13,437 nucleotides of DNA from a virus: IMG/VR virus record IMGVR_UViG_3300045988_131345, positions 1-13,437 of that record. One strand, 5' to 3'. How positions within the stretch are numbered: position 1 is the first letter of the stretch; each line of letters begins with the position of its first letter. The notes below the pieces were generated by a model. The model worked only from the letters and a program-made list of their open reading frames with translations. It searched no databases and was not told where the DNA came from. Positions 1,310-13,437 of this stretch are shown piece by piece. The position numbers and the translations under genes were made by a program.

Positions 1310-3343
1310 ATGGTAAAGTTTAATTTAACGGGAGAATTTAAAAATGAAGAAGCATTGTTTTACGAGGTGGAAGACCTTACCCCGTTAGATTATGCTATGA
1401 ACTGTGATATAGTATATAGTAAAGCAAGAAACAATAAGAAAGCATATTACAATTATCCGAACACTTTTGATATTGAAAGTACGACAGTAGATTGTGAAGA
1501 ACCTTATGCTTTTATGTATATTTTTATGTTCTGGTACAATGGAAAGGCTATTTGTGGCAGACGCTGGGAAGAATTTGTTAAATTTATTGATAATGTAGTA
1601 AAGTACAATAATGATGATATAAAGGTAGTATTTTATGTACATTATTTATCTTATGAATTCCAATTTATTAAAGATTTTTTTAATTGGAAAGAAGTATTTG
1701 CAGTTGAAGCACATAAAGTACTTAGAGCTACTTATAAGAATATCGAATTTCGATGCTCTTTTTATTTATCCAACATGAATTTAGAGAAGTTTTGTGAAAG
1801 TGGGAAGAATGTAAAACATCTGAAACAAGCAGGGCATTTTGACTACAAAGTATTAAGAACGCCAGATACGATTTTAACGAATGAAGAATTGACATATTGT
1901 TATTGTGACGTAGTCGGATTACATGAAAGATTATTGGAGTCTTTGGAAGACGATACAATGATTACAATACCATACACAAGTACAGGATATGTGAGAAGAA
2001 ACTGCCGTTTAGCAATGCGAAAAAACAAAGCAAATAGAGAACTATTTTTAAAGACGCGTTTAAATAAGGAAACTTACACTTTATTAAAAGAAGCCATGCG
2101 TGGCGGAAACACACACGGAAATTCTTTGCACGTAGAACAGATAGAGCATGATGTTAAATGTTTTGACATTGCTAGCTCATATCCAGCCGTAATGATGATG
2201 AAATATTATCCTGTTACTTGCTTTACAAAGGTAAAACCTACTATAAAAAGCTTTGAAAAATACTTAAAAGAGTATTGTTGTTTATTTAGGGTGCACTTTA
2301 TCGGATTAAAGATAAAGAAAGAAGTTCCAGTACCGTATATTTCCGAGCATAAGTGTTTAAAGAAAATGAACCCTTTAATTTTTAACGGGCGAGTAGTCGA
2401 AGCAGAAGTTATCTCCATGACAGTTACAGAAATTGACTTTGACATTATCCGTTCTGAATACACTTACGAAAAATTTGCTATTTCCGATTTTTATATTGCA
2501 AAACGAGGAGAACTACCAAAAGAGTTAAAAGATGAAATTATGACTTATTTTTATAATAAAACTACTTTAAAGAAAGTTGACCCGTACTTGTACGCAAAGA
2601 GTAAAAATCTATTAAATTCAATTTTCGGAATGGCTTGTACAGACCCTGTGCGTGAAATAATGTTATATTCTGAAACGGTCGGGTGGGTAAAAGAAACGGA
2701 AGATATAGAAGAAGCACTTGATAAATATTATCGTTCTTATAATAGTTTTTTGCCGTATCAATGGGGGATTTGGGTTACTGCTCATGCAAGATTGCAGTTA
2801 GAAAAGTCTTTAAGATTGACTAAAAGCCATACAGTCTACATTGACACAGACAGTAATAAGTGTGTAGACATACCCGACAACATTTTAGATGAATTAAATG
2901 AAGAAATAAAGAAAGAAGCAGAGGAACATAAAGCATACGTTGATTTTAACGATGAACGTTATTATCTAGGAGTATTTGAACAAGAGGACACTTGTAAAGA
3001 TTTTATAACAATGGGTGCGAAGAAATACGCTTATACGGAAGATGACGATACATTTCATATAACAATTTCTGGTGTATCTAAAAAATTAGGTGCGCAAGAA
3101 ATGATTGAAAAAGCAAAAGAAGAAAACGCTCTACCTATTGAACAGTTTAAAAGGGGGTTTATATTTTATAATTGCGGAAGAACAGTACACCGCTACAACG
3201 AAGAAAGACCGCATTATATTACAGTAAATGGTTGCAAGATACTGAATGCAAGTAACATCGCAATTACTGACAGTACATACAAGTTAAGCACGACTGATGA
3301 TTTTGAAAGTTTTATTGAAAATAACCTTGACATTATGATTTAA
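1310..3343 (+). CDS. Protein-primed family-B DNA polymerase (677 aa)
   Basis: Motifs read in the translation: Exo I FDIES (nt 1466-1480), Exo II region YLSYEFQF, Exo III YCYCD, motif A DIASSYP, motif B KSKNLLNSIFG, motif C YIDTDS (nt 2837-2854), and KxY as GAKKYAY. GGAG sits 6 nt before the ATG. Confidence 0.97.
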   Translation: MVKFNLTGEFKNEEALFYEVEDLTPLDYAMNCDIVYSKARNNKKAYYNYPNTFDIESTTVDCEEPYAFMYIFMFWYNGKAICGRRWEEFVKFIDNVVKYNNDDIKVVFYVHYLSYEFQFIKDFFNWKEVFAVEAHKVLRATYKNIEFRCSFYLSNMNLEKFCESGKNVKHLKQAGHFDYKVLRTPDTILTNEELTYCYCDVVGLHERLLESLEDDTMITIPYTSTGYVRRNCRLAMRKNKANRELFLKTRLNKETYTLLKEAMRGGNTHGNSLHVEQIEHDVKCFDIASSYPAVMMMKYYPVTCFTKVKPTIKSFEKYLKEYCCLFRVHFIGLKIKKEVPVPYISEHKCLKKMNPLIFNGRVVEAEVISMTVTEIDFDIIRSEYTYEKFAISDFYIAKRGELPKELKDEIMTYFYNKTTLKKVDPYLYAKSKNLLNSIFGMACTDPVREIMLYSETVGWVKETEDIEEALDKYYRSYNSFLPYQWGIWVTAHARLQLEKSLRLTKSHTVYIDTDSNKCVDIPDNILDELNEEIKKEAEEHKAYVDFNDERYYLGVFEQEDTCKDFITMGAKKYAYTEDDDTFHITISGVSKKLGAQEMIEKAKEENALPIEQFKRGFIFYNCGRTVHRYNEERPHYITVNGCKILNASNIAITDSTYKLSTTDDFESFIENNLDIMI

Positions 3344-3425
3344 TTGTACTATTATATACTTGTAACAAAGAAACAGATTTATTAAGAAAGAACAACACTA
3401 TATCTGATTAAAAGGAGAAAACAAC

Positions 3426-3773
3426 ATGAACAACAAAATTATGGTAAACGTAACAGCAAAGGACATTTTTAATGCACAGGTAGGAAAAGGATTTAAAGAA
3501 GCAGGCAGCGGAAAAATTGAAGGAAAGCTTACTGGATATGCAGTTTATGACACAGAGTCTGAGAATGAAGAAACTGGAGAAATTGAAACAAAAACAATCT
3601 CCTTAATGGTTGTTGACGGAGTAATCTATTCTGGTGAAAGTATTGTAATTGCAAGCAGAATAAGACAAATAAGACAGTTCACAACAGAAGAAGAAATTAA
3701 AGCGGGCATTCCTATTCAGTTCGGCGAATTGAAAGTAGGAAGGGGAACAGCAACAACGTTCATATTGAAATAA
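3426..3773 (+). CDS. Small acidic protein (115 aa); possible ssDNA-binding or replication accessory protein, function unproven
   Basis: Consensus SD AAAGGAG (3411-3417) lies 8 nt before ATG 3426. The gene sits between the polymerase and the packaging ATPase. The sequence looks beta-rich with an acidic central loop (ESENEETGEIE). The SSB idea rests on size and context only. Confidence 0.85.
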   Translation: MNNKIMVNVTAKDIFNAQVGKGFKEAGSGKIEGKLTGYAVYDTESENEETGEIETKTISLMVVDGVIYSGESIVIASRIRQIRQFTTEEEIKAGIPIQFGELKVGRGTATTFILK

Positions 3774-3783
3774 GAAAGGGGGA

Positions 3784-4815
3784 ATGGCGGTCTATCGACT
3801 GCCTTTCTTTATGTATTTAAACTTAGAAACATTAGAAAATAAATTAGATGTGTTTAATATAATTTTAGGAAATCGTGGCGGCGGAAAGACATATACTTGT
3901 TTAAGAGATTGTATAAAGAATGGAAAGAAATTTATATATTTAAGAAGAACACAAAAAGAGATACAGCGTATTGCAAAGAAGAAAGTAGATGTGTCCTTAT
4001 CTCCTTTTGAACCTCTTAATAAAGACTATCCAGATTGGCATTTAGAAGTAGAAGCCCTTGACGATGATATATACACAGTGACAAATGGATTTATTGGAGA
4101 TGAAAAGAAAAGTGTTGGTCTTATGTGTCCTTTAAGCACTTTTGCAAGTATGAGAGGTTTTTCTGCCCCCGACATAGAAGTGATTATATTTGATGAATTT
4201 AATCCAGAATTACATGTAAGAGGTATTAAAAATGAAGATGACGCATTTTTTAATATGTACGAAACAGTAAATCGAAACAGGGAACTGCAAGGAGAAAAGC
4301 CCGTACAAGTATTTTTGTTAGGTAACACAAATAATATTGCAATTCCAATTCTAGAAACACTCGGCTTAATTGAAGTAATAGAGGGTATGCAGAGAAAAGG
4401 AAAGAAATTTTATAATAACAGAAATCGAAACTTATTTTTAATGCTAATGGAAGACAGTGATTACATAGAGAAAAAATCCAAGACAGCTTTATATAAACTT
4501 ACAGCTGGTACAGAATTTTATGAAATGGCACTTGAAAACAAGTTTGCATATAATGACTTTAGCGACATAGAAGTTAAAAAACTGAATGAATACCGATTGG
4601 AGTTTACTTGTAATGATTTTGCAGTTTGGAAACACAAAAGCCGATTCGAATTTTATGTAACAAAGAATACAACAGGACGAGTAGACTATGAAAACACAGA
4701 AGCTGAAGCTGTGGCTTTACGAAATCGTATGAGATATTTATATAATGCTTATGTTGGAAGAAAAATAATTTATCAGAATTACAGGGTAAAAAAGTCCTTT
4801 ACAAATTATGTGTAA
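3784..4815 (+). CDS. DNA encapsidation ATPase, phi29 gp16-like (343 aa)
   Basis: Walker A GNRGGGKT (nt 3868-3891) and Walker B VIIFDEF. Blocks FIYLRR, TVNRNRE and GTEFYEMALENKF parallel my recollection of phi29 gp16 (FIYVRR, TVFRNRE, GTEYGEMSLDNQF). SD AAGGGGG lies just upstream of the ATG. Confidence 0.95.
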   Translation: MAVYRLPFFMYLNLETLENKLDVFNIILGNRGGGKTYTCLRDCIKNGKKFIYLRRTQKEIQRIAKKKVDVSLSPFEPLNKDYPDWHLEVEALDDDIYTVTNGFIGDEKKSVGLMCPLSTFASMRGFSAPDIEVIIFDEFNPELHVRGIKNEDDAFFNMYETVNRNRELQGEKPVQVFLLGNTNNIAIPILETLGLIEVIEGMQRKGKKFYNNRNRNLFLMLMEDSDYIEKKSKTALYKLTAGTEFYEMALENKFAYNDFSDIEVKKLNEYRLEFTCNDFAVWKHKSRFEFYVTKNTTGRVDYENTEAEAVALRNRMRYLYNAYVGRKIIYQNYRVKKSFTNYV

Positions 4816-4826
4816 TGTGTTATTAT
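4798..4826 (+). promoter_or_regulatory. Candidate promoter at the 3' end of the ATPase gene
   Basis: -35 TTTACA (4798-4803), 17-nt spacer, extended -10 TGtTATTAT (4818-4826). The predicted start near 4833 coincides with the first base of the structured element. Confidence 0.35.
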
Positions 4827-4833
4827 AATAATC

Positions 4834-4901
4834 GAGGAAGGGAACAACTCAAGGCTCGGAAAGCCGTTCATGGGTGGGAGCACCTAAACCTTCCTCTTTT
4901 T
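4834..4901 (+). ncRNA. Structured RNA element ending in a U-tract (candidate small RNA, or atypical terminator/attenuator)
   Basis: Outer 8-bp stem GAGGAAGG (4834-4841) pairs with CCTTCCTC (4889-4896), followed by TTTTT (4897-4901). The 47-nt interior can form two GC-rich 4-bp hairpins: GGCT/AGCC (4853-4856/4862-4865) and GGTG/CACC (4873-4876/4881-4884, GGAG loop). It is visibly more GC-rich than its surroundings and lies in the largest internal non-coding gap. Confidence 0.33.
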
Positions 4902-4904
4902 CCT

Positions 4905-4929
4905 AAAGGACATGAAATTCATGTTCTTT
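4905..4929. promoter_or_regulatory. Palindrome/hairpin upstream of the lysis genes (possible operator or RNA processing site)
   Basis: 10-bp stem AAAGGACATG (4905-4914) pairs with CATGTTCTTT (4920-4929), including one G-T pair, with loop AAATT. The core ACATGAAATTCATGT is a perfect 15-bp palindrome. It does not cover the holin SD (4935-4941). Confidence 0.4.
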
Positions 4930-4948
4930 ATGGAAAGGGGGAAACGAA

Positions 4949-5161
4949 ATGAATGAAATCGTGACAGTAGTCACAAATGCTATTAGCAATGTCGGTTTTC
5001 CAATCTGTTGTGTCGGTGCATTAGGTTATCTTCTGTATCGTGAGCAGGAATTACACAGAGAAGAAAGCAAGATGTTTACGAGCGCAATTAAAGATTTAAC
5101 AGTCGCGCTCACACAACTTTCAGAGAAGTTGGGGGGTAATGAAGATGCTGAGGATTATTGA
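4949..5161 (+). CDS. Small single-TM membrane protein (70 aa), YvrJ-like; putative holin
   Basis: SD AAGGGGG lies 7 nt before ATG 4949. One hydrophobic segment (VGFPICCVGALGYLLY) is followed by a charged helical tail. The N-terminal pattern NxGFPI...YLL resembles the YvrJ family as I recall it. The gene sits immediately upstream of, and overlaps, the endolysin gene. Confidence 0.8.
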   Translation: MNEIVTVVTNAISNVGFPICCVGALGYLLYREQELHREESKMFTSAIKDLTVALTQLSEKLGGNEDAEDY

Positions 5162-6867: not shown

Positions 6868-7208
6868 TAAACGCAGGGTTTACGAAAGAGGAGATTATGC
6901 AGTTGGCTAGTCCAGCACAGCCACAGGTTCAGACACAGGTTCAGACACCAACACTGGTTCAGCCACAGGTTCAGCCACAGGTTCAGACACCAACACTGGT
7001 TCAGCCACAGGTTCAGCCACAGGTTCAGACACAGGTTCAGCCACAAGTTCAGATGCAGATGGCGCCGAATGTGGACTATAAAATGCTTTATGAAACACAG
7101 AAACAGATGCTTGCCGATATGCAGTCTTTAAATCAGAGAATGAATGTTGGTGCACCGATTGACACCGTGGAGAGCGTCATGAAGGATTTTCTTGGGGGTG
7201 AAAAATAA
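6840..7208 (+). CDS. Repeat-containing protein (122 aa); putative scaffolding protein
   Basis: Strong SD AAGGAGG lies 9 nt before ATG 6840. The gene sits directly upstream of the capsid gene, with a TAATG overlap at 7206-7210. A short helical N-terminus and a helical C-terminus flank a (P/T)QVQ array. The function is assigned by position, as for phi29 gene 7. Confidence 0.85.
   Translation: MQTSDIVKLVNAGFTKEEIMQLASPAQPQVQTQVQTPTLVQPQVQPQVQTPTLVQPQVQPQVQTQVQPQVQMQMAPNVDYKMLYETQKQMLADMQSLNQRMNVGAPIDTVESVMKDFLGGEK
6912..7052 (+). repeat. In-frame tandem repeat array (12-nt unit, with an exact 42-nt higher-order duplication)
   Basis: Units of (C/A)CACAGGTTCAG fall at 6921, 6933, 6963, 6975, 7005, 7017, 7029 and 7041. 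ACACCAACACTGGTTCAG occurs at 6945 and 6987. Segments 6945-6986 and 6987-7028 are identical. Confidence 0.95.
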
Positions 7209-8386
7209 TGCCGGCTAATGAATTAAGTATCAATCAGGTCAGTACAATTTTAAATGCAGTGGTTAAGCAGGCAACAGGAAACACAGCTTTAGCAACAGTA
7301 GACGGAAATAATTTTGCAACAGTGGCACAGTTACCATTGAAAATTGGATATGACCCTGTTATTAACGCTATTTCTCAGGTTCTGTCATCTACAATCTTTT
7401 CTGTCAGACCGTATTCAAGGAAATTTTCTGGTATCAATGTTAGCGAGCAGAAGTTTGGAAACATTACTAGAAAGTTGAACATTTCTGACAGTGAATGGTC
7501 TGATGACGACAGAATAGAGTTAGAGGATGGTAAAAGTGTTGACATGTATCCAGTCAAGAAACCGTCTGTGTTACAGACTAATTTTTACGGTGCTAATGCC
7601 TATCAGAGAATGACAACTATTTTTAAAGACCAGTTAGACGTTGCCTTTTCCTCACAGGAAGAATTTGGACGATTTATCTCCATGCTGATGACCAATGTTT
7701 CCGATATGATTGAGCAGGGGCATGAAAGTATGGCAAGAATGTGTATTCTTAACTACGTTGGTGGAAAGCTTGCTAGTGCAGATGAAGCAAATAACCGTAT
7801 TCATTTGCTTACAGAATACAATGCGCTTACAGGTTTGACTTTAGATGATAAAGACGTATATAAACCAGATAATTTTCCGTCATTCATGAAGTTTGTTGTT
7901 GCTAGAATTAAATCGATTTCCAACCTTATGACCGAAAGAAGTGAAAAGTTTCACACTAACGTTACTGGAAAAGAGATTATGCGCCATACACCACTTTCAA
8001 AGCAGAAATTGTATCTGCTTGCTCCACAGCAGTATTTAATGGAAACGTCCGTGCTGTCAGATTTATTTAATGATAAATACATGAAAATGACTGACTTAGA
8101 GTTAGTGAATTTTTGGCAGAATATCGATAAACCATCTAATATTGATATTAAGCCAATTTATATGGATAAGACTGGAAGTTTAAAACAGCCTACTGATACA
8201 ATCAAAGAGCCTCACCTTTTCGGTGTAATTTTTGATGAAGAAGCTCTGGGTTATACTACTGTAAACAGGTGGTCTGCACCTACACCTTTTAATGCAAGAG
8301 GGGGTTATCATAATATCTTCTGGCACTATACAGATAGATACTGGAATGACTTTACAGAAAATGGTGTTGTTCTACTGTTAGATTAA
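7208..8386 (+). CDS. Major capsid protein, phi29 gp8-like (392 aa)
   Basis: Placement by position (after the scaffold candidate, before the tail knob) and size. Two blocks resemble my recollection of phi29 gp8: ILNAVVKQATGN...FATVAQ and KDQLDVAFSSQEEFGRFISML. A hairpin follows the stop codon. Confidence 0.85.
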   Translation: MPANELSINQVSTILNAVVKQATGNTALATVDGNNFATVAQLPLKIGYDPVINAISQVLSSTIFSVRPYSRKFSGINVSEQKFGNITRKLNISDSEWSDDDRIELEDGKSVDMYPVKKPSVLQTNFYGANAYQRMTTIFKDQLDVAFSSQEEFGRFISMLMTNVSDMIEQGHESMARMCILNYVGGKLASADEANNRIHLLTEYNALTGLTLDDKDVYKPDNFPSFMKFVVARIKSISNLMTERSEKFHTNVTGKEIMRHTPLSKQKLYLLAPQQYLMETSVLSDLFNDKYMKMTDLELVNFWQNIDKPSNIDIKPIYMDKTGSLKQPTDTIKEPHLFGVIFDEEALGYTTVNRWSAPTPFNARGGYHNIFWHYTDRYWNDFTENGVVLLLD

Positions 8387-8429: not shown

Positions 8430-9794
8430 ATGGAAGTAATTTTTTATAAATTCAGTAAAAGAAAAAATAGTACGAAACAGGCTTCTAGAGGACTTTCTTA
8501 CAGGCACGGCACTTTAAAGGAGTTTTGTAGTATTACAAAGCCTATAATTCTTGTAGACATGGGGAAAATTCCAGATTACAATTATGCTTATATTACAGAA
8601 TTTAAAAGATATTACTATATTACTAATGTAGTAGTAGAAAGCGGTACAATGTGCAGAATTTACATGACTGTGGATGTATTGGCAAGTTACAAAGATGATA
8701 TCTTAAATGCGGATGTGTTTGTACAGCGTTGGAGCCGTTCGGAAGTCATTGACTTAGTGGATGGAGAATGTATCGCAAAAGCAAACCCTAAAATTATGAT
8801 AGAAACAGGTCGTATGCCACTCGATACGAAAGGGATTTTTGTTTTAGGAATAGCTGGAAAGAATGGAGAAGAAGCAATAACTTACTTTGACTTGTCTCTA
8901 GGACAGATGGAACGTTTTAATTATTTTATGTTTACGGAAGAAACTTTTGCGAGCGTAATATCCGAAGACGTAGTTAAATCATTTTTTAATCCCTTTGAAT
9001 ATGTAACATCTGCAATGTGGTTTCCATTTCCACATAGTCTGCAAGAAGCAAAGAAAATTGACTTCGGATGGTTCGAAAGCGAAGAAATGAAAGGTGTTCC
9101 GTTAAAAGGAAACTCTCTTACAAGTGGAGAACTTTGGATTAGAATTCCTAAAATGTACCCTAACGGAGATTTCAGAAATGGGACTTTTGGGCAATATGAA
9201 ATATACATTCCTTTCTTTGGCTCTATACCTCTGGACAGTAACATCATAAACAGTGCGGATGTTATTTCATATAAATTTGTTGTCGATATTGCAACAGGAA
9301 AAGCGCAATGCCAACTCGGATATGGTGATGAAAGCATAATAGAAAGTGGAAGTGGTACAGTGTTTAAAAGAATAGAGGGGCAAATGGGATGCCCTGTCGC
9401 TCTTGCACAAAGTAAAACAGATATTATAAATAGTGCTTTTAGTGGTGTTGGTAGTCTTGCAAGTGCACGTCCGTCCGCTGGTGGTGTTGTAAACGCTGTG
9501 CATGGGGTTTACAGTGCAGTACAGAACGCAATGCCTAAAATGGAAACAAAAAGCGGAAATGGTTGTAGAAGCATTATGGATTTTGAAAAGGACGTAAAAC
9601 TGACTGCCACATTTTATCGAGCTAATGTATTAAATCCAGAAGATAGGGGGTATATACACTGTAAAAGACAAACTCTCGGTAGTCTCGGCGGTGGTTTTGC
9701 TATTTGCGATAATGCAAGCATTTCGTTATCTGCAACGGAAGAAGAAATTACAGAAGTTAATAACTATGTGAATGGGGGAATTTATATTGAGTAA
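8430..9794 (+). CDS. Tail knob / distal tail protein, phi29 gp9-like (454 aa)
   Basis: Only possible start is ATG 8430, because an in-frame TAG lies at 8427. The N-terminal block YAYITEFKRYYYITNVV...MTVDVLASY parallels phi29 gp9 (YAFVTELEF...FEIDVLQTW), and the C-terminal LSATEEEITEVNNYVNGGIY parallels gp9 (NNNDLQEIRTIFDNGITLW). Both gp9 sequences are from memory. The gene sits between capsid and portal, as in phi29. Confidence 0.85.
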   Translation: MEVIFYKFSKRKNSTKQASRGLSYRHGTLKEFCSITKPIILVDMGKIPDYNYAYITEFKRYYYITNVVVESGTMCRIYMTVDVLASYKDDILNADVFVQRWSRSEVIDLVDGECIAKANPKIMIETGRMPLDTKGIFVLGIAGKNGEEAITYFDLSLGQMERFNYFMFTEETFASVISEDVVKSFFNPFEYVTSAMWFPFPHSLQEAKKIDFGWFESEEMKGVPLKGNSLTSGELWIRIPKMYPNGDFRNGTFGQYEIYIPFFGSIPLDSNIINSADVISYKFVVDIATGKAQCQLGYGDESIIESGSGTVFKRIEGQMGCPVALAQSKTDIINSAFSGVGSLASARPSAGGVVNAVHGVYSAVQNAMPKMETKSGNGCRSIMDFEKDVKLTATFYRANVLNPEDRGYIHCKRQTLGSLGGGFAICDNASISLSATEEEITEVNNYVNGGIYIE

Positions 9795-10677
9795 TTATCC
9801 TGTGGACTTTGATGGAGTAGCACGTTACAACACTAAAGTAACCCCTAGTACTGTGCATACATGGGGGACTTACAATGTAGAATTTTATAAGAGATATTTG
9901 CTTACTAAAGCAATGTCAGTTTTTGAATGGACTGTACCGAAAGAATGGTCGTTAGATTATTTTAAAAATTGTATATATGTAAACGGTAAAATATGTGTGA
10001 TAAATACAAATCGTTTTGGAGTAATCCCACAAATGTTTACGCCAGCAGGATATGACATCTATTATGAGCCTAACACAGCATACATTGCTAGCCCAATTTT
10101 AGGAGAGTACACACTGGAAATAGGTAAACAATGTGAAGTGATAAAGCTAAAAAGAGATTGGTGTGGAATTATGGATATTATTAACAATTATGCAGAATTG
10201 CTTGCCGAATGTGATAAGTCTATCGGTGTCAATCTTTTAAATACGAAAGTTGCTTTTACTTTTGCGGTAAACAGTAAAACAGAAGCCGAAAAAATGAAGA
10301 AAATCTATGACCAAATTACTTCTGGAAATCCGGCTGTATTTTACAAAGACGGCGGGGAAAAGTGGGATTACTTTAGTCAGAATTTAAAGCAAAATTACAT
10401 TGTACAAGATTTAATTATTGCTAAAAAGTCCATTATGGACGAGTTTAATACTCTTGTTGGTATTCCAAACGCAAACACGGAAAAGAGAGAAAGACTGGTC
10501 AAGGATGAAGTTAATGCAAACAATGCGGACACGTATTCGCTGGCTGAGGAATGGCTAGAAGAATTAAAAATCGGATGTGAAAAGGTTAATAGAATGTTTG
10601 GACTTAACTTGTCTGTTAAATTTAGGGAATGGGTGAAGCAGAATGGCGAAAATAACACTGTGGGGAATTTTGAATAA
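9772..10677 (+). CDS. Portal / upper collar connector, phi29 gp10-like (301 aa)
   Basis: FNTLVGIPNANTEKRERLVKDEVNANN...CEKVNRMFGLNLSVKFR closely parallels phi29 gp10 ([23 protein letters not shown]...CEKINELYGLNVKVKFR), and VFEWTVP parallels LFEWENLP. The start is uncertain: ATG 9772 has no SD, whereas in-frame TTG 9787 follows GGGGG (9774-9778). Confidence 0.93.
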   Translation: MGEFILSNYPVDFDGVARYNTKVTPSTVHTWGTYNVEFYKRYLLTKAMSVFEWTVPKEWSLDYFKNCIYVNGKICVINTNRFGVIPQMFTPAGYDIYYEPNTAYIASPILGEYTLEIGKQCEVIKLKRDWCGIMDIINNYAELLAECDKSIGVNLLNTKVAFTFAVNSKTEAEKMKKIYDQITSGNPAVFYKDGGEKWDYFSQNLKQNYIVQDLIIAKKSIMDEFNTLVGIPNANTEKRERLVKDEVNANNADTYSLAEEWLEELKIGCEKVNRMFGLNLSVKFREWVKQNGENNTVGNFE

Positions 10678-11228: not shown

Positions 11229-12815
11229 ATGAGTTTTGAAGTGTTTCCGTATACTAATTTTCATGAAATGAATTTGGATTGGTTAATTGAAAAAATGAAA
11301 GAGTTAGTAAAAGAATGGATGGACGTAGGCAAAAAGTGGGAAGAGATTAGAGAACTAATTGAAAACTTCTTAGACCACGTAGCAGTAGACATTTCCGAAG
11401 AAGTCAAGAAACAGTTAAAAGTGATGCTGGATAACGGAGAGTTAGAAGCAATTATCACAAGTTCCTTGGGAATTGTGACAAGCGTAGATACTTGCGTAGA
11501 ACTTAAGAAATCTACGAAATATAAGGTAGGGCAGGTTATTGTTACAAGGGGGTATCACAAAATCGGTGACAATGGCGGTGCAACTTATTACTTGTCAGAC
11601 ACTGCTTTTGAGGACACGGGGGTTTTCGAAAAAACAGCAAACGGATTATTTGCAAATATGCTGTACAATGATGTAATTTCCGTTGAACAGTTAGGTGTCG
11701 TTAGCAATGCTACTGGTGATTACACTACAAAACCTGCTAATAATGCGGTAGTTTTTAATAATGCCCTGACGCTTTGCAAAAGCAATTCTACAAGAAAACA
11801 CAAATTTAAACTTGTAGGTTACGGAAATTATTATGTAGAAACATCTTTGGATTTCGGCGGAACGAATGAAGCGAAAGTTTCAGACAGTGATTTCAAAACA
11901 GACTTTTCTGGTTCAACGATTTTCACAGATAAAAGCTTAGACGCTCTTATTTCTATTAAAAACGCTCAAGAAATTATTTATAGTTTTGGGTATATCAATG
12001 CAGAAACTTGTAATTACGGGATTAAAATTACCTCTTTGGAGCGCTATGACTGGACACAGTATGTTACTTTACAATGTTTAGATGTAAGAGCTTCAACAAA
12101 GTCCTTATATGTCAGTAACAATAATAAGGGCGGTTGGGTGAATGAATTACATGTTATCGGTGGCTTATATCCAAATGGAATATTTATAGATTGCCCGAAT
12201 CGAGTGGATGAAGTTTTTGTAACTAATATGCTCTCTGGTTTTTATTTTACGGACGTGTCCTGTGAAGGTGCTGATACGTGGTTTACGTTAAAAAATGTTG
12301 TTTACACATATATAAATAACGCGAGAACAGCAGACGTTAGTGACAAATGGCTTGAAACACAGCAAAATTGCAGTAACATTTATTTAACAGGTTCTTTTAG
12401 AACAGACCAATTAACAATATCACAGGAAACATACAATATCAACATAAGGGGCTCTTTAAATGTTCCTGATAACTTCACAATAAAAAATCCTATTTATATT
12501 AAAGGTGGGTGGGTTACAGATTTTCTACCGATTGCTTCATCACAAGGAAATGGGCGTGGCTTCATTAGAAATAATGATGTATCTCCTACAATTATTCAAT
12601 TTAAAGGAGATTGTTCAAAACTTATTCTACCGAAAGAATATTCAGACTATCTGGGTATAAATAAGTTTGAAGCATACTTCGATAGCAACTGCACGGGTAT
12701 CGTAAAAGACTCATATAAAGTAACAGTTGTTAATACAGAAAGTTATAGAGGTAGATATGCTACTATATACTATGTCGGAAATGCTTGGTGGATTAACTCA
12801 CCATCAAATAATTAA
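11229..12815 (+). CDS. Tail appendage / receptor-binding protein (528 aa)
   Basis: ATG 11229 lies 8 nt after AAAGGAG (11214-11220). The ORF-track start at 11142 lies inside the previous gene and has no SD. The N-terminus (FHEMNLDWLIEKMKEL) is coiled-coil-like and is followed by a long beta-rich region. It is the last gene of the structural block, like phi29 gene 12, but I recognise no sequence similarity to gp12. Confidence 0.88.
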   Translation: MSFEVFPYTNFHEMNLDWLIEKMKELVKEWMDVGKKWEEIRELIENFLDHVAVDISEEVKKQLKVMLDNGELEAIITSSLGIVTSVDTCVELKKSTKYKVGQVIVTRGYHKIGDNGGATYYLSDTAFEDTGVFEKTANGLFANMLYNDVISVEQLGVVSNATGDYTTKPANNAVVFNNALTLCKSNSTRKHKFKLVGYGNYYVETSLDFGGTNEAKVSDSDFKTDFSGSTIFTDKSLDALISIKNAQEIIYSFGYINAETCNYGIKITSLERYDWTQYVTLQCLDVRASTKSLYVSNNNKGGWVNELHVIGGLYPNGIFIDCPNRVDEVFVTNMLSGFYFTDVSCEGADTWFTLKNVVYTYINNARTADVSDKWLETQQNCSNIYLTGSFRTDQLTISQETYNINIRGSLNVPDNFTIKNPIYIKGGWVTDFLPIASSQGNGRGFIRNNDVSPTIIQFKGDCSKLILPKEYSDYLGINKFEAYFDSNCTGIVKDSYKVTVVNTESYRGRYATIYYVGNAWWINSPSNN

Positions 12816-12834
12816 GAGGGCTTACAGCCCTCTT
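12814..12834. terminator. Bidirectional hairpin terminator between convergent genes
   Basis: AAGAGGGCT (12814-12822), loop TAC, AGCCCTCTT (12826-12834): a perfect 9-bp stem. It overlaps the TAA of the + strand gene (12813-12815) and the TAA of the - strand gene (12834-12836). T/A-rich runs flank it on both strands. Confidence 0.7.
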
Positions 12835-13034
12835 TAATTGTATTCTATTTTAAATATTCCTAAAGCCCTTAACTCTTCATTATCAAATTGCCAATGTATA
12901 AGCCTGTTCTTTAGTGCCCTATACCCTCGTTCATTTATGTATGCAATCCTTGTTTTTCTGTCGATTGTTACAAATACAGTAGCGTATTTCTTATTTATCG
13001 TGCTTTTCGCCGTCAACATTGTTTGCAATCTCAT
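12834..13034 (-). CDS. Hypothetical right-end early protein (66 aa)
   Basis: ATG 13034 lies 8 nt after a strong SD GGAGGAG (13043-13049 on the - strand). It ends at the shared terminator. The protein is basic, with no recognisable motif. Confidence 0.7.
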   Translation of the reverse strand: MRLQTMLTAKSTINKKYATVFVTIDRKTRIAYINERGYRALKNRLIHWQFDNEELRALGIFKIEYN

Positions 13035-13085
13035 TTTTTGTACTCCTCCAATTTACGCAATAGATGATAATTTTCAATATATAAA

Positions 13086-13208
13086 TCATTTATTTTTTTT
13101 TGTTGATGTGCAGATAGCGTACACATAATCGCAATAACGTATTTCTTCTAACAATTCCCTACTAATTATAGCACCGTCAAATTTCATTACTTCTTTCTGT
13201 TTAAACAT
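13086..13208 (-). CDS. Small hypothetical protein (40 aa), first gene inside the right ITR; possibly truncated at an A9 tract
   Basis: Not in the ORF track because it is too short. ATG 13208 lies 9 nt after the ITR-borne GAGAGG (13218-13223). My hand translation is MFKQKEVMKFDGAIISRELLEEIRYCDYVYAICTSTKKNK, with the stop at 13086-13088. Confidence 0.45.
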   Translation of the reverse strand: MFKQKEVMKFDGAIISRELLEEIRYCDYVYAICTSTKKNK

Positions 13209-13214
13209 CTTATC

Positions 13215-13437
13215 TTACCTCTCTTTCATTTGATAAGTCTATTATAGCATAGTCTCTATAAAAAGCAATAGATTTTTCAAATTTATAAAAGTCGTAATAT
13301 TCAGACAAATCTACGTTATTGTACTTCAACGCACTTGTATCACTTTAAAGTATTAAAGTGTGCTTTATTATTTTATCACGTTAAAGCGTTAATGCGTTAA
13401 TAGGGGAATACGTTAATGCGGTATAGTGATAAAATAA
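13215..13437. repeat. Right inverted terminal repeat (223 bp)
   Basis: Perfect reverse complement of 1-223, ending at the last base of the window. Confidence 0.97.
13241..13268 (-). promoter_or_regulatory. Identical ITR promoter at the right end, firing inward on the - strand
   Basis: Mirror image of 170-197. It is followed on the - strand by the same GAGAGG (13218-13223) and a different ATG (13208). Confidence 0.55.

Follow-up and report, generated by a model that had tools for sequence, protein, structure and literature searches.

A conserved three-way-junction RNA that opens the late operon in small phi29-like phages: a candidate miniature packaging RNA

Positions 4834-4896 of IMG/VR virus record IMGVR_UViG_3300045988_131345, a phi29-like phage genome of 13,437 nucleotides (nt) that was analysed whole and is called the window below, almost certainly encode a conserved structured RNA, of a family outside Rfam, that is transcribed from a promoter at 4798-4826, has its 5' end at the first base of its outer helix and is the first element of the late transcription unit. 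The family was found in roughly a hundred genomes of small phi29-like phages whose hosts are anaerobes of the gut and rumen; one of these phages, AD70P3 of Amedibacillus (Guelinviridae, OP172639.1), is in culture and carries the RNA at about 6365-6305 on the minus strand. Because the RNA is conserved with covariation in these relatives, it is real and beyond chance, and by comparison of the sequences the family is new and strongly supported. Its function is argued by analogy: we tentatively put forward a miniature, self-associating packaging RNA (pRNA), equivalent to the 63-nt prohead-binding part of phi29 pRNA.

The fold and its promoter

The RNA lies in a non-coding gap of 133 nt (4816-4948) between the open reading frame (ORF) of the packaging ATPase (3784-4815) and the next ORF (4949-5161), a gap that the first-pass annotation had measured correctly and had called GC-rich. 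The enrichment holds for the RNA core (55% against about 32-39% in the surrounding 200-nt windows), not for the gap as a whole. Folding 4834-4901 to minimum free energy reproduces exactly the three-way junction and trailing U5 that had been proposed from the sequence.

The outer helix, A, pairs GAGGAAGG (4834-4841) with CCUUCCUC (4889-4896) in 8 base pairs (bp), five of them GC, and encloses an arm (4842-4869) and a hairpin (4871-4886), all on the + strand. The arm opens with helix C, in which GAAC (4842-4845) pairs with GUUC (4866-4869). A 7-nt bulge on the 5' side, AACUCAA (4846-4852), separates it from hairpin E (4853-4865), made of GGCU (4853-4856), the pentaloop CGGAA (4857-4861) and AGCC (4862-4865); the 3' strand of C runs straight on from that of E, with no bulge on the 3' side. 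Hairpin D (4871-4886) consists of UGGGUG (4871-4876), the loop GGAG (4877-4880) and CACCUA (4881-4886). The junction bases AA (4887-4888) precede the 3' strand of helix A, and the U5 tract (4897-4901) directly follows it. Helix A and the U5 tract together form a branched site resembling an intrinsic terminator, which a simple terminator scan omits, the stem being one that closes a branched fold.

The fold of 4834-4901 has a free energy of -25.9 kcal/mol (z = -2.74), equalled in 2/200 shuffles. The promoter is of sigma-70 type and lies where it had been annotated (4798-4826, + strand): TTTACA (4798-4803), a 17-nt spacer that includes TG (4818-4819), and TATTAT (4821-4826), scoring 10/12 with an extended -10. 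It overlaps the stop codon of the ATPase gene (4813-4815). Since promoter-like sites occur in the window at chance frequency (51 found, 49.8 expected, so no enrichment as a class), this site alone is no proof. Together, the single-sequence fold and the promoter are only suggestive.

Conservation and covariation

Relatives, given below as L numbers, were gathered through the ATPase, as 271 protein clusters at E <= 1e-20, at least 437 IMG/VR stretches and individual contigs. Their ATPases are identical to that of the window at 85% in L012, 79% in L005, 79% in L013, 60% in L011 and 32% in L006/L098. L096 is MT835998.1, from human faeces, and L098 is IMGVR_UViG_3300021426_000446. The phi29-like phages of Clostridium perfringens, Enterococcus, Bifidobacterium and Curtobacterium lie outside the family survey.

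A covariance model, R1, finds one match per source, on the + strand only and in the same place, in 73/82 sources, with E = 3e-14 to 0.02; in the window it matches 4833-4898 (43.4 bits, E = 1e-7). Most of the loci that it misses carry variants that are visible by eye, with other E loops or a reduced D arm (L019, L037, L039, L050, L057, L078, L101, AD70P3); L006/L098 alone truly has no such element. The R1 alignment (A4), in which helix lengths vary, mis-registers helices A and D (62% and 48% paired), and was replaced by a strict descriptor with a shuffle null and by a gapless alignment, A7. By the descriptor, 62 distinct sequences carry the fold, either immediately behind the ATPase gene or with a single ORF in between; any match at all arose in just 4/310 dinucleotide shuffles, each scoring below the weakest real one. 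A relaxed descriptor for distant genomes was rejected as too unspecific, the maximum of its null overlapping real scores.

A7 has 47 columns and 16 distinct members, taken as fixed windows anchored on the E loop and aligned by sequence only. Its cells pair at 99.7%, against 71.9% when shuffled (0/500) and 30-41% when slid, and both sides have changed at 13/18 pairs. Helix D is 100% paired, with double changes at 4/5 pairs. A sequence-only MAFFT alignment of 60 members recovers helices C and E, with double changes at all eight pairs and the E stem 100% paired. Taken over the family, every pair of helix C except one is doubly changed. In the same 60 sequences the C, G, A and A of the E loop, C-N-G-A-A, are invariant.

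The first-pass annotation had asked whether the stems co-vary and whether close relatives lack the region. The stems do co-vary, with compensatory changes across the relatives in all four helices, and relatives whose ATPases are as little as about 34% identical still have the region. L005, the closest diverged relative, keeps both promoter and fold while 4/8 outer-stem pairs have changed on both sides (GUAGCAAG/CUUGCUAC), and it has compensatory changes in every other helix as well. L012, L013 and L011 add further ones; those in helix D are found in L005, L012 and L013. With 79/1501 pairs being G:U, the + strand is the strand that folds.

The core measures 63-79 nt across the family, and its lengths are not spaced in threes. 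Helix A (5-15 contiguous bp) is variable and is the fastest-evolving part; the junction strands measure 0-1 nt between A and C, 0-2 nt between C and D and 2-8 nt between D and A.

The promoter at 4798-4826 is retained in L001-L005, L012 and L013, and 57/62 distinct members have a promoter scoring at least 9/12 upstream of the fold, several of them 12/12. The -10 ends 4-9 nt before the outer helix in 46/62, a spacing from which the transcript is predicted to begin at the first base of the fold; in the window this is G4834, the start that had been annotated.

No Rfam family matches the whole window or its sub-windows apart from chance miRNA-like matches on the second hairpin (described below), and literature searches found no description of this RNA. 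A comparable fold was not found in the PE3 and PL1 leaders of Streptococcus phage Cp-1.

It is scarcely credible that 4834-4896 holds no RNA element, and that the signal is a coding sequence, a chance fold of a GC-rich spacer or only a terminator of the early operon. A mechanical 45-amino-acid (aa) ORF, 4815-4952, which the earlier annotation missed, does span the entire gap, and it is open, although shorter, in L005. The peptides of the window and L005 nevertheless differ nearly everywhere outside the promoter-encoded MCYY, through changes that are pairwise compensatory for the stems. With an unconserved peptide, core lengths that are not 3-periodic, no Shine-Dalgarno sequence (SD) and an ATG upstream of the predicted transcript start, the coding reading was rejected; a frame is open across the core in 42/62 members, the level expected of short GC-rich segments, and is no evidence of coding. 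The single-sequence z is just -2.74, which would suit a chance fold, but covariation and the shuffle controls exclude chance. As for a terminator, none separates the ATPase gene from the RNA, so helix A and U5 could stop early transcripts; a plain terminator, however, would not conserve the pairing of bulge and loop described next, and most members have no U-tract.

Pairing between the bulge and the D loop

The bulge that separates helix C from hairpin E has its complement in the D loop, a feature absent from the first-pass annotation. In the window CUC (4848-4850) can pair with GAG (4878-4880). The window's clade pairs 3 bp here, as CUC:GAG in the window, UGC:GCA in L005, L012 and L013 and CGC:GCG in L011; most other clades pair 4-5 bp, among them GGUCA:UGACC, GACCA:UGGUC, AGUCA:UGACU and GCACA:UGUGC. 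When bulge and D loop come from one sequence, their contiguous Watson-Crick complementarity is 4.15 bp on average; when they come from different sequences, it is 2.40 bp (0/2000 permutations). More than 20 pair types occur. In A7 this helix is 98.8% paired and 3/5 of its pairs are doubly changed. Four members (L022, L023, L025, L029) differ solely in the bulge and D loop. The signal of diversifying selection on the kissing bases is weak: in close pairs the bulge and D loop diverge at about the rate of stem E, and more slowly than helix A.

Under the Lescoute-Westhof rules for three-way junctions, strands of 0-2 nt between C and D and of 2-8 nt between D and A place D away from the C/E arm. We infer that such strand lengths favour pairing of the bulge and D loop in trans.

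Linkage to the late promoter

The RNA always stands at +1 of the late operon of lysis and structural genes, whatever the layout of the genome. Its position directly after the ATPase gene had been treated as meaningful, and this did not hold up. L096 has its ATPase and polymerase genes on the minus strand about 8 kb away, and the RNA behind its promoter, directly upstream of a holin-like gene; in L101 a contig end is no more than about 150 nt from the promoter and RNA (about 90 nt from the RNA), which again head the late genes. Since in both the RNA stays with the 5' end of the late operon, it travels with the late promoter, and its adjacency to the ATPase gene is incidental. L096 and L101 share a layout in which early and late genes lie on different strands and the left end is close to the late promoter and RNA.

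The first gene downstream usually encodes a protein of the holin-like family, with exceptions in L032, L045 and L057. A search of genome contigs with the holin-like protein returned only five mis-binned copies of the same phages. At L011:2927-3105 an early stop interrupts the holin-like frame behind the RNA, and no gene is called; a pseudogene or an assembly error is possible.

Sequences downstream of the fold

A U-tract follows helix A in 15/62 distinct members by an automated criterion, and in a few more by eye. It is clade-specific: U4-U5 is retained in L005, L012 and L013, and U-tracts directly after helix A recur in separate clades, namely the window's clade, the L051/54/70 group, L076, L096, AD70P3 and L112. 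The proposal of an independent small-RNA gene stands in part. The RNA has its own promoter throughout the family and a U-tract in the window's clade, but the U-tract is not general; judged from these sequences, a small-RNA gene with its own terminator fits the window's clade and not the family.

Three architectures are seen downstream of the fold, over a distance from helix A to the SD of 14-61 nt. In T1 (the window's clade, the L043/51/54/70 clade and AD70P3) helix A is followed by U4-5, often a palindrome, and the SD, over a gap of 52-61 nt. In T2 (about 22 members) an AU-rich linker leads to a 6-9-nt exact complement of the 5' strand and loop of hairpin E, here called anti-E, and then the SD. 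In T3 the SD follows helix A within 14-25 nt and there is no terminator. Anti-E is present in L096, L020, L021, L022, L023, L029, L044, L060, L068, L087 and others, and absent from the window's clade. It co-varies with hairpin E (AGCCGGA:UCCGGCU, GCCCGG:CCGGGC, and ACGGACGGA:UCCGUCCGU in L096), and its pairing and hairpin E are mutually exclusive. L096 combines a U5 tract with an anti-E element (L096:1125-1145).

In the window a second hairpin of 19 bp (4897-4938, + strand) pairs the U-tract and CC with GGAAAGG of the SD region, and for this reason the whole gap folds with z = -4.36. The SD, AGGGGG, and the ATG (4949-4951) of the holin-like gene occupy 4936-4951. The second hairpin contains the palindrome that had been annotated, ACATGAAATTCATGT at 4910-4924, with 7-bp arms around one central base and unique in the window. 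A 27-nt insertion or deletion removes the second hairpin from L005, L012 and L013, where the palindrome is absent too.

Palindromes recur in other relatives. One, TGTTTCAC(G/A)TGAAACA, sits inside the promoter spacer of L046, L056, L074, L075 and L079. Two copies in L011 flank the RNA (2796-2823 and 2889-2906) and can pair as a 26-bp extension of the outer helix; L039 and L050 carry two copies downstream of the RNA; and GTATAC-type palindromes lie downstream in L043, L051 and L054. The suggestion that the window's palindrome is an operator is helped by these related palindromes near the same late promoter; the window's motif is just loosely similar to them. Because such palindromes shift in position relative to the RNA yet stay near the late promoter, that of the window is probably an operator in the DNA and no piece of the conserved RNA, and the recurrent palindrome of the relatives is probably the operator of a regulator.

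Contig ends in metagenomes, which are DNA assemblies, do not pile up at the transcript start or at the U-tract.

Genome context

The window is a complete linear genome (13.4 kb) of the protein-primed phi29 type, with perfect inverted terminal repeats of 223 bp (1-223 and 13215-13437). Symmetric chance matches to Rfam rne5 at both window ends were the first hint of these repeats. The major genes all lie on the + strand. They are the B-family protein-primed DNA polymerase (1310-3343, Pfam DNA_pol_B_2), a phi29-type single-stranded DNA-binding protein (3426-3773), the gp16-type packaging ATPase (3784-4815, Pfam Podovirus_Gp16), a holin-like protein of 70 aa with a single transmembrane segment (4949-5161, the first late gene, with a weak match to holin family phrog_4898), a GH25 lysin, a tail lysozyme, the phi29-type major capsid protein (7208-8386, Pfam Phi29_MCP), and the portal (9772-10677, Pfam Phage_connector). 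The late unit, an operon of about 8 kb, places its lysis genes (holin-like protein, lysin) first and its structural genes after. A profile of the ATPase family aligns end to end with phi29 gp16 in PDB 7JQQ, the motor structure from cryo-electron microscopy (query 1-333, target 1-320 of 332, E = 2.7e-30), the C-terminal domain included. No tRNA or tmRNA genes were found in the window by ARAGORN.

The best promoter match of the window, 11/12, is at 3327-3355 (TTGACA, 17 nt, TATTAT), at the end of the polymerase gene and upstream of the genes for the single-stranded DNA-binding protein and ATPase. No terminator separates the unit of this promoter from the RNA. At the other end, a bidirectional terminator-like hairpin, AAGAGGGCTTACAGCCCTCTT (12814-12834), closes the late operon, and small minus-strand ORFs (12834-13208) converge on it from the right end. 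AD70P3 likewise has three small opposite-strand genes at one end.

Possible functions

A pRNA-type function is put forward because of the topology of the fold, the kissing-loop signature, the full-length gp16 homologue, the recurrent U-tracts and the lengths of the junction strands. RNA copies would join head-to-tail by kissing of bulge and D loop into a ring at the portal vertex of the prohead, and the ring would dock the gp16-type ATPase. In the window's clade, termination at helix A and U5 would release free RNA and read-through would give the late mRNA; in clades with no U-tract the late mRNA may leave the RNA behind as a 5' remnant that resists nucleases. All of this, from oligomerisation and prohead binding to termination and release, is a proposed model. 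That the RNA is a true homologue of phi29 pRNA, half its size and required for packaging in a large clade of 12-15-kb phi29-like phages (Guelinviridae-like), is a stronger claim that we hold to be possible and rather doubtful.

The first-pass annotation had already named a pRNA as one hypothesis. Helix order, the 5'-side bulge and the co-varying bulge and D loop have since come to its side; the Rfam pRNA model has not, and it heads a set of findings that weigh against a packaging role. RF00044 has no match at E <= 10 in the whole window, in window 4825-4945 (121 nt) or in L011 2785-2920 (136 nt). The N-terminus of the phi29 portal, gp10, is basic and binds RNA. The portal here, as had been pointed out from the start, has no such N-terminus: it begins MGEFILSNYPVDFDG, with no basic cluster. 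Most members have no terminator, and their SD comes 14-33 nt after helix A, so that release of a free RNA must be assumed. The RNA follows the late promoter and not the ATPase gene (L096, L101). Helix A is short, length-variable and fast-evolving, unlike the ATPase-docking A helix of phi29. The E loop stays invariant between phages with ATPases only about 35% identical, which fits a very conserved (host) partner better than rapidly evolving phage proteins. About 22/62 members, and L096, carry the stretch complementary to hairpin E, which by its sequence points to conformational switching within the leader. In L006/L098, with 32% ATPase identity, the model finds no RNA copy anywhere in 14.6 kb. 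After its ATPase gene L098 has only a promoter and a short leader; the RNA is therefore not universal among gp16-encoding phages.

The main rival, possible without being probable, is a cis-acting element controlling late transcription: either a put-like RNA that makes RNA polymerase resistant to termination over the 8-kb operon, or a gate in the style of lambda PR'/tR' at helix A and U5, where a short leader transcript would stop unless a phage factor let polymerase read on into the holin, lysin and structural genes. It accounts well for the placement of the RNA, always at +1 of a strong near-consensus promoter and always the first late-operon element, and it requires no expression platform, in keeping with members whose SD directly follows the fold. 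An invariant E loop fits a conserved host partner such as RNA polymerase, and the clustering of operator-like palindromes at the promoter and leader suggests that late transcription is regulated here. In the late region of lambda a promoter, a short leader and a terminator are followed by lysis and then structural genes, an arrangement mirrored by the window's order of promoter, structured RNA, U5, lysis genes and structural genes. However, with a U-tract in only about a quarter of members, gating by termination is not the common function, and convincing internal terminators are not seen in the late operon. The fold also differs from put and the Rfam antitermination families are unmatched; a downstream anti-E would soon dismantle hairpin E, which is hard to fit with a persistent modification of polymerase; and the exact pRNA-like topology would be a coincidence. 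A second rival has the RNA act after transcription. It might stabilise the long late mRNA from its 5' end or cap it against exonucleases, or else serve as a translational operator of the holin-like gene, working through a phage or host protein bound to the E loop or through the E/anti-E switch. We think this unlikely. A simple stabiliser would have its 5' end buried in helix A, as is found, but needs neither a co-varying pairing of bulge and loop nor an invariant loop. An operator would gain from the SD lying a few nt from helix A in many members, from the partial occlusion of the SD by the second hairpin in the window, and from the two exclusive conformations that the co-varying anti-E and E provide; viral exonuclease-resistant RNAs form a pseudoknot between a loop and a downstream segment, which anti-E resembles. 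Yet the first gene is not always holin-like (L032, L045, L057), the distance to the SD ranges over 14-61 nt, complementarity of anti-E to the SD is not consistent on inspection, and the U-tracts after helix A are left unexplained.

A riboswitch-type sensor, with the junction as a small-molecule aptamer that times lysis and the late genes, is quite improbable. A compact junction with long-range pairing in a 5' leader would suit one, helix A doubles as a terminator stem in the window, and there is a precedent in the cyclic di-GMP riboswitch of the lysis module of a Clostridium phage. Against it, the junction strands are short and unconserved, the conserved bases lie in a hairpin loop and not in a pocket, the three downstream architectures provide no consistent expression platform, and Rfam riboswitches are unmatched.

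The readings differ in what they would mean. True homology to phi29 pRNA would mean that packaging motors which depend on RNA are an ancestral and widespread trait, no peculiarity of Bacillus phages, and that about 63 nt, produced as the 5' end of the late transcript, are enough for the smallest ring-forming module. With a pRNA-type function the RNA would be of interest for RNA nanotechnology, as a minimal natural module that self-assembles. If cis-acting, it would be a control RNA of a new class, found at the late operon of the smallest tailed phages. Under both readings, this is a previously undescribed and strongly supported structured RNA that has pRNA topology and a kissing-loop signature at half the size.

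Comparison with known systems

HK022 encodes the put RNAs, which like the RNA described here are folded, measure about 70 nt and lie close to the promoter at the start of a long operon; neither would need a dedicated expression platform. The put RNAs fold as two hairpins, without a junction or kissing pair; there is thus no counterpart of the three-way junction or the co-varying loop pairing, and there is no sequence similarity. The lambda late leader (PR' 6S, tR', Q) shares a strong, constitutive-looking promoter and a short leader that ends, here putatively, at a terminator, with lysis and then structural genes beyond; it has no conserved tertiary fold, whereas here the fold is conserved and a U-tract is present in about a quarter of members. 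A Q-like protein was not identified. Purine riboswitches and hammerheads also have an outer helix and two arms joined by a long-range Watson-Crick contact. Their long junction strand lies between the arms, which pack side by side, and their junction is conserved, while in the new family C and D are joined by 0-2 nt and the junction is unconserved.

The closest comparison is with phi29. Reviews present pRNA as a feature unique to phi29 and its close relatives among Bacillus phages (PMC5066667, PMC11476376). Its prohead-binding region is bases 22-84 (63 nt), its CE and D loops mediate self-association by intermolecular pairing, and its long A helix, with a CCA bulge, docks the ATPase (PMC5066667). 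As a positive control, the Rfam model RF00044 scores 145 bits on phi29. Its consensus runs A, 1 nt, C, a 9-nt 5' bulge, hairpin E, C', UUU, hairpin D, A'; the order in the new family is A, C, a 7-nt 5' bulge, hairpin E, C', hairpin D, 2-8 nt, A'. The new RNA is half as long (63-79 nt against 117-174 nt). Helix A here has 5-15 bp and no CCA bulge, where phi29 has about 25 bp, and helix C has 4-7 bp instead of 9 bp. Here the unpaired junction strand is the one from D to A; in phi29 it is the one from C to D. There is no conserved domain II here, and no similarity by sequence or covariance model. The new RNA is found at +1 of the late operon and usually lacks a terminator, whereas phi29 pRNA is a separate early unit at the genome end. 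For all these differences, domain I of phi29 pRNA has the same A helix closing a three-way junction with C and D, the same one-sided 5' bulge and the same hairpin E, and in both RNAs the D loop is complementary to the bulge and co-varies with it. Nucleotide 1 of phi29 pRNA lies within helix A. The transcript described here likewise starts in its outer helix, its core has the size of the 63-nt prohead-binding region, and the phage that encodes it has, as phi29 does, a gp16-type ATPase, a portal, a major capsid protein and a protein-primed polymerase.

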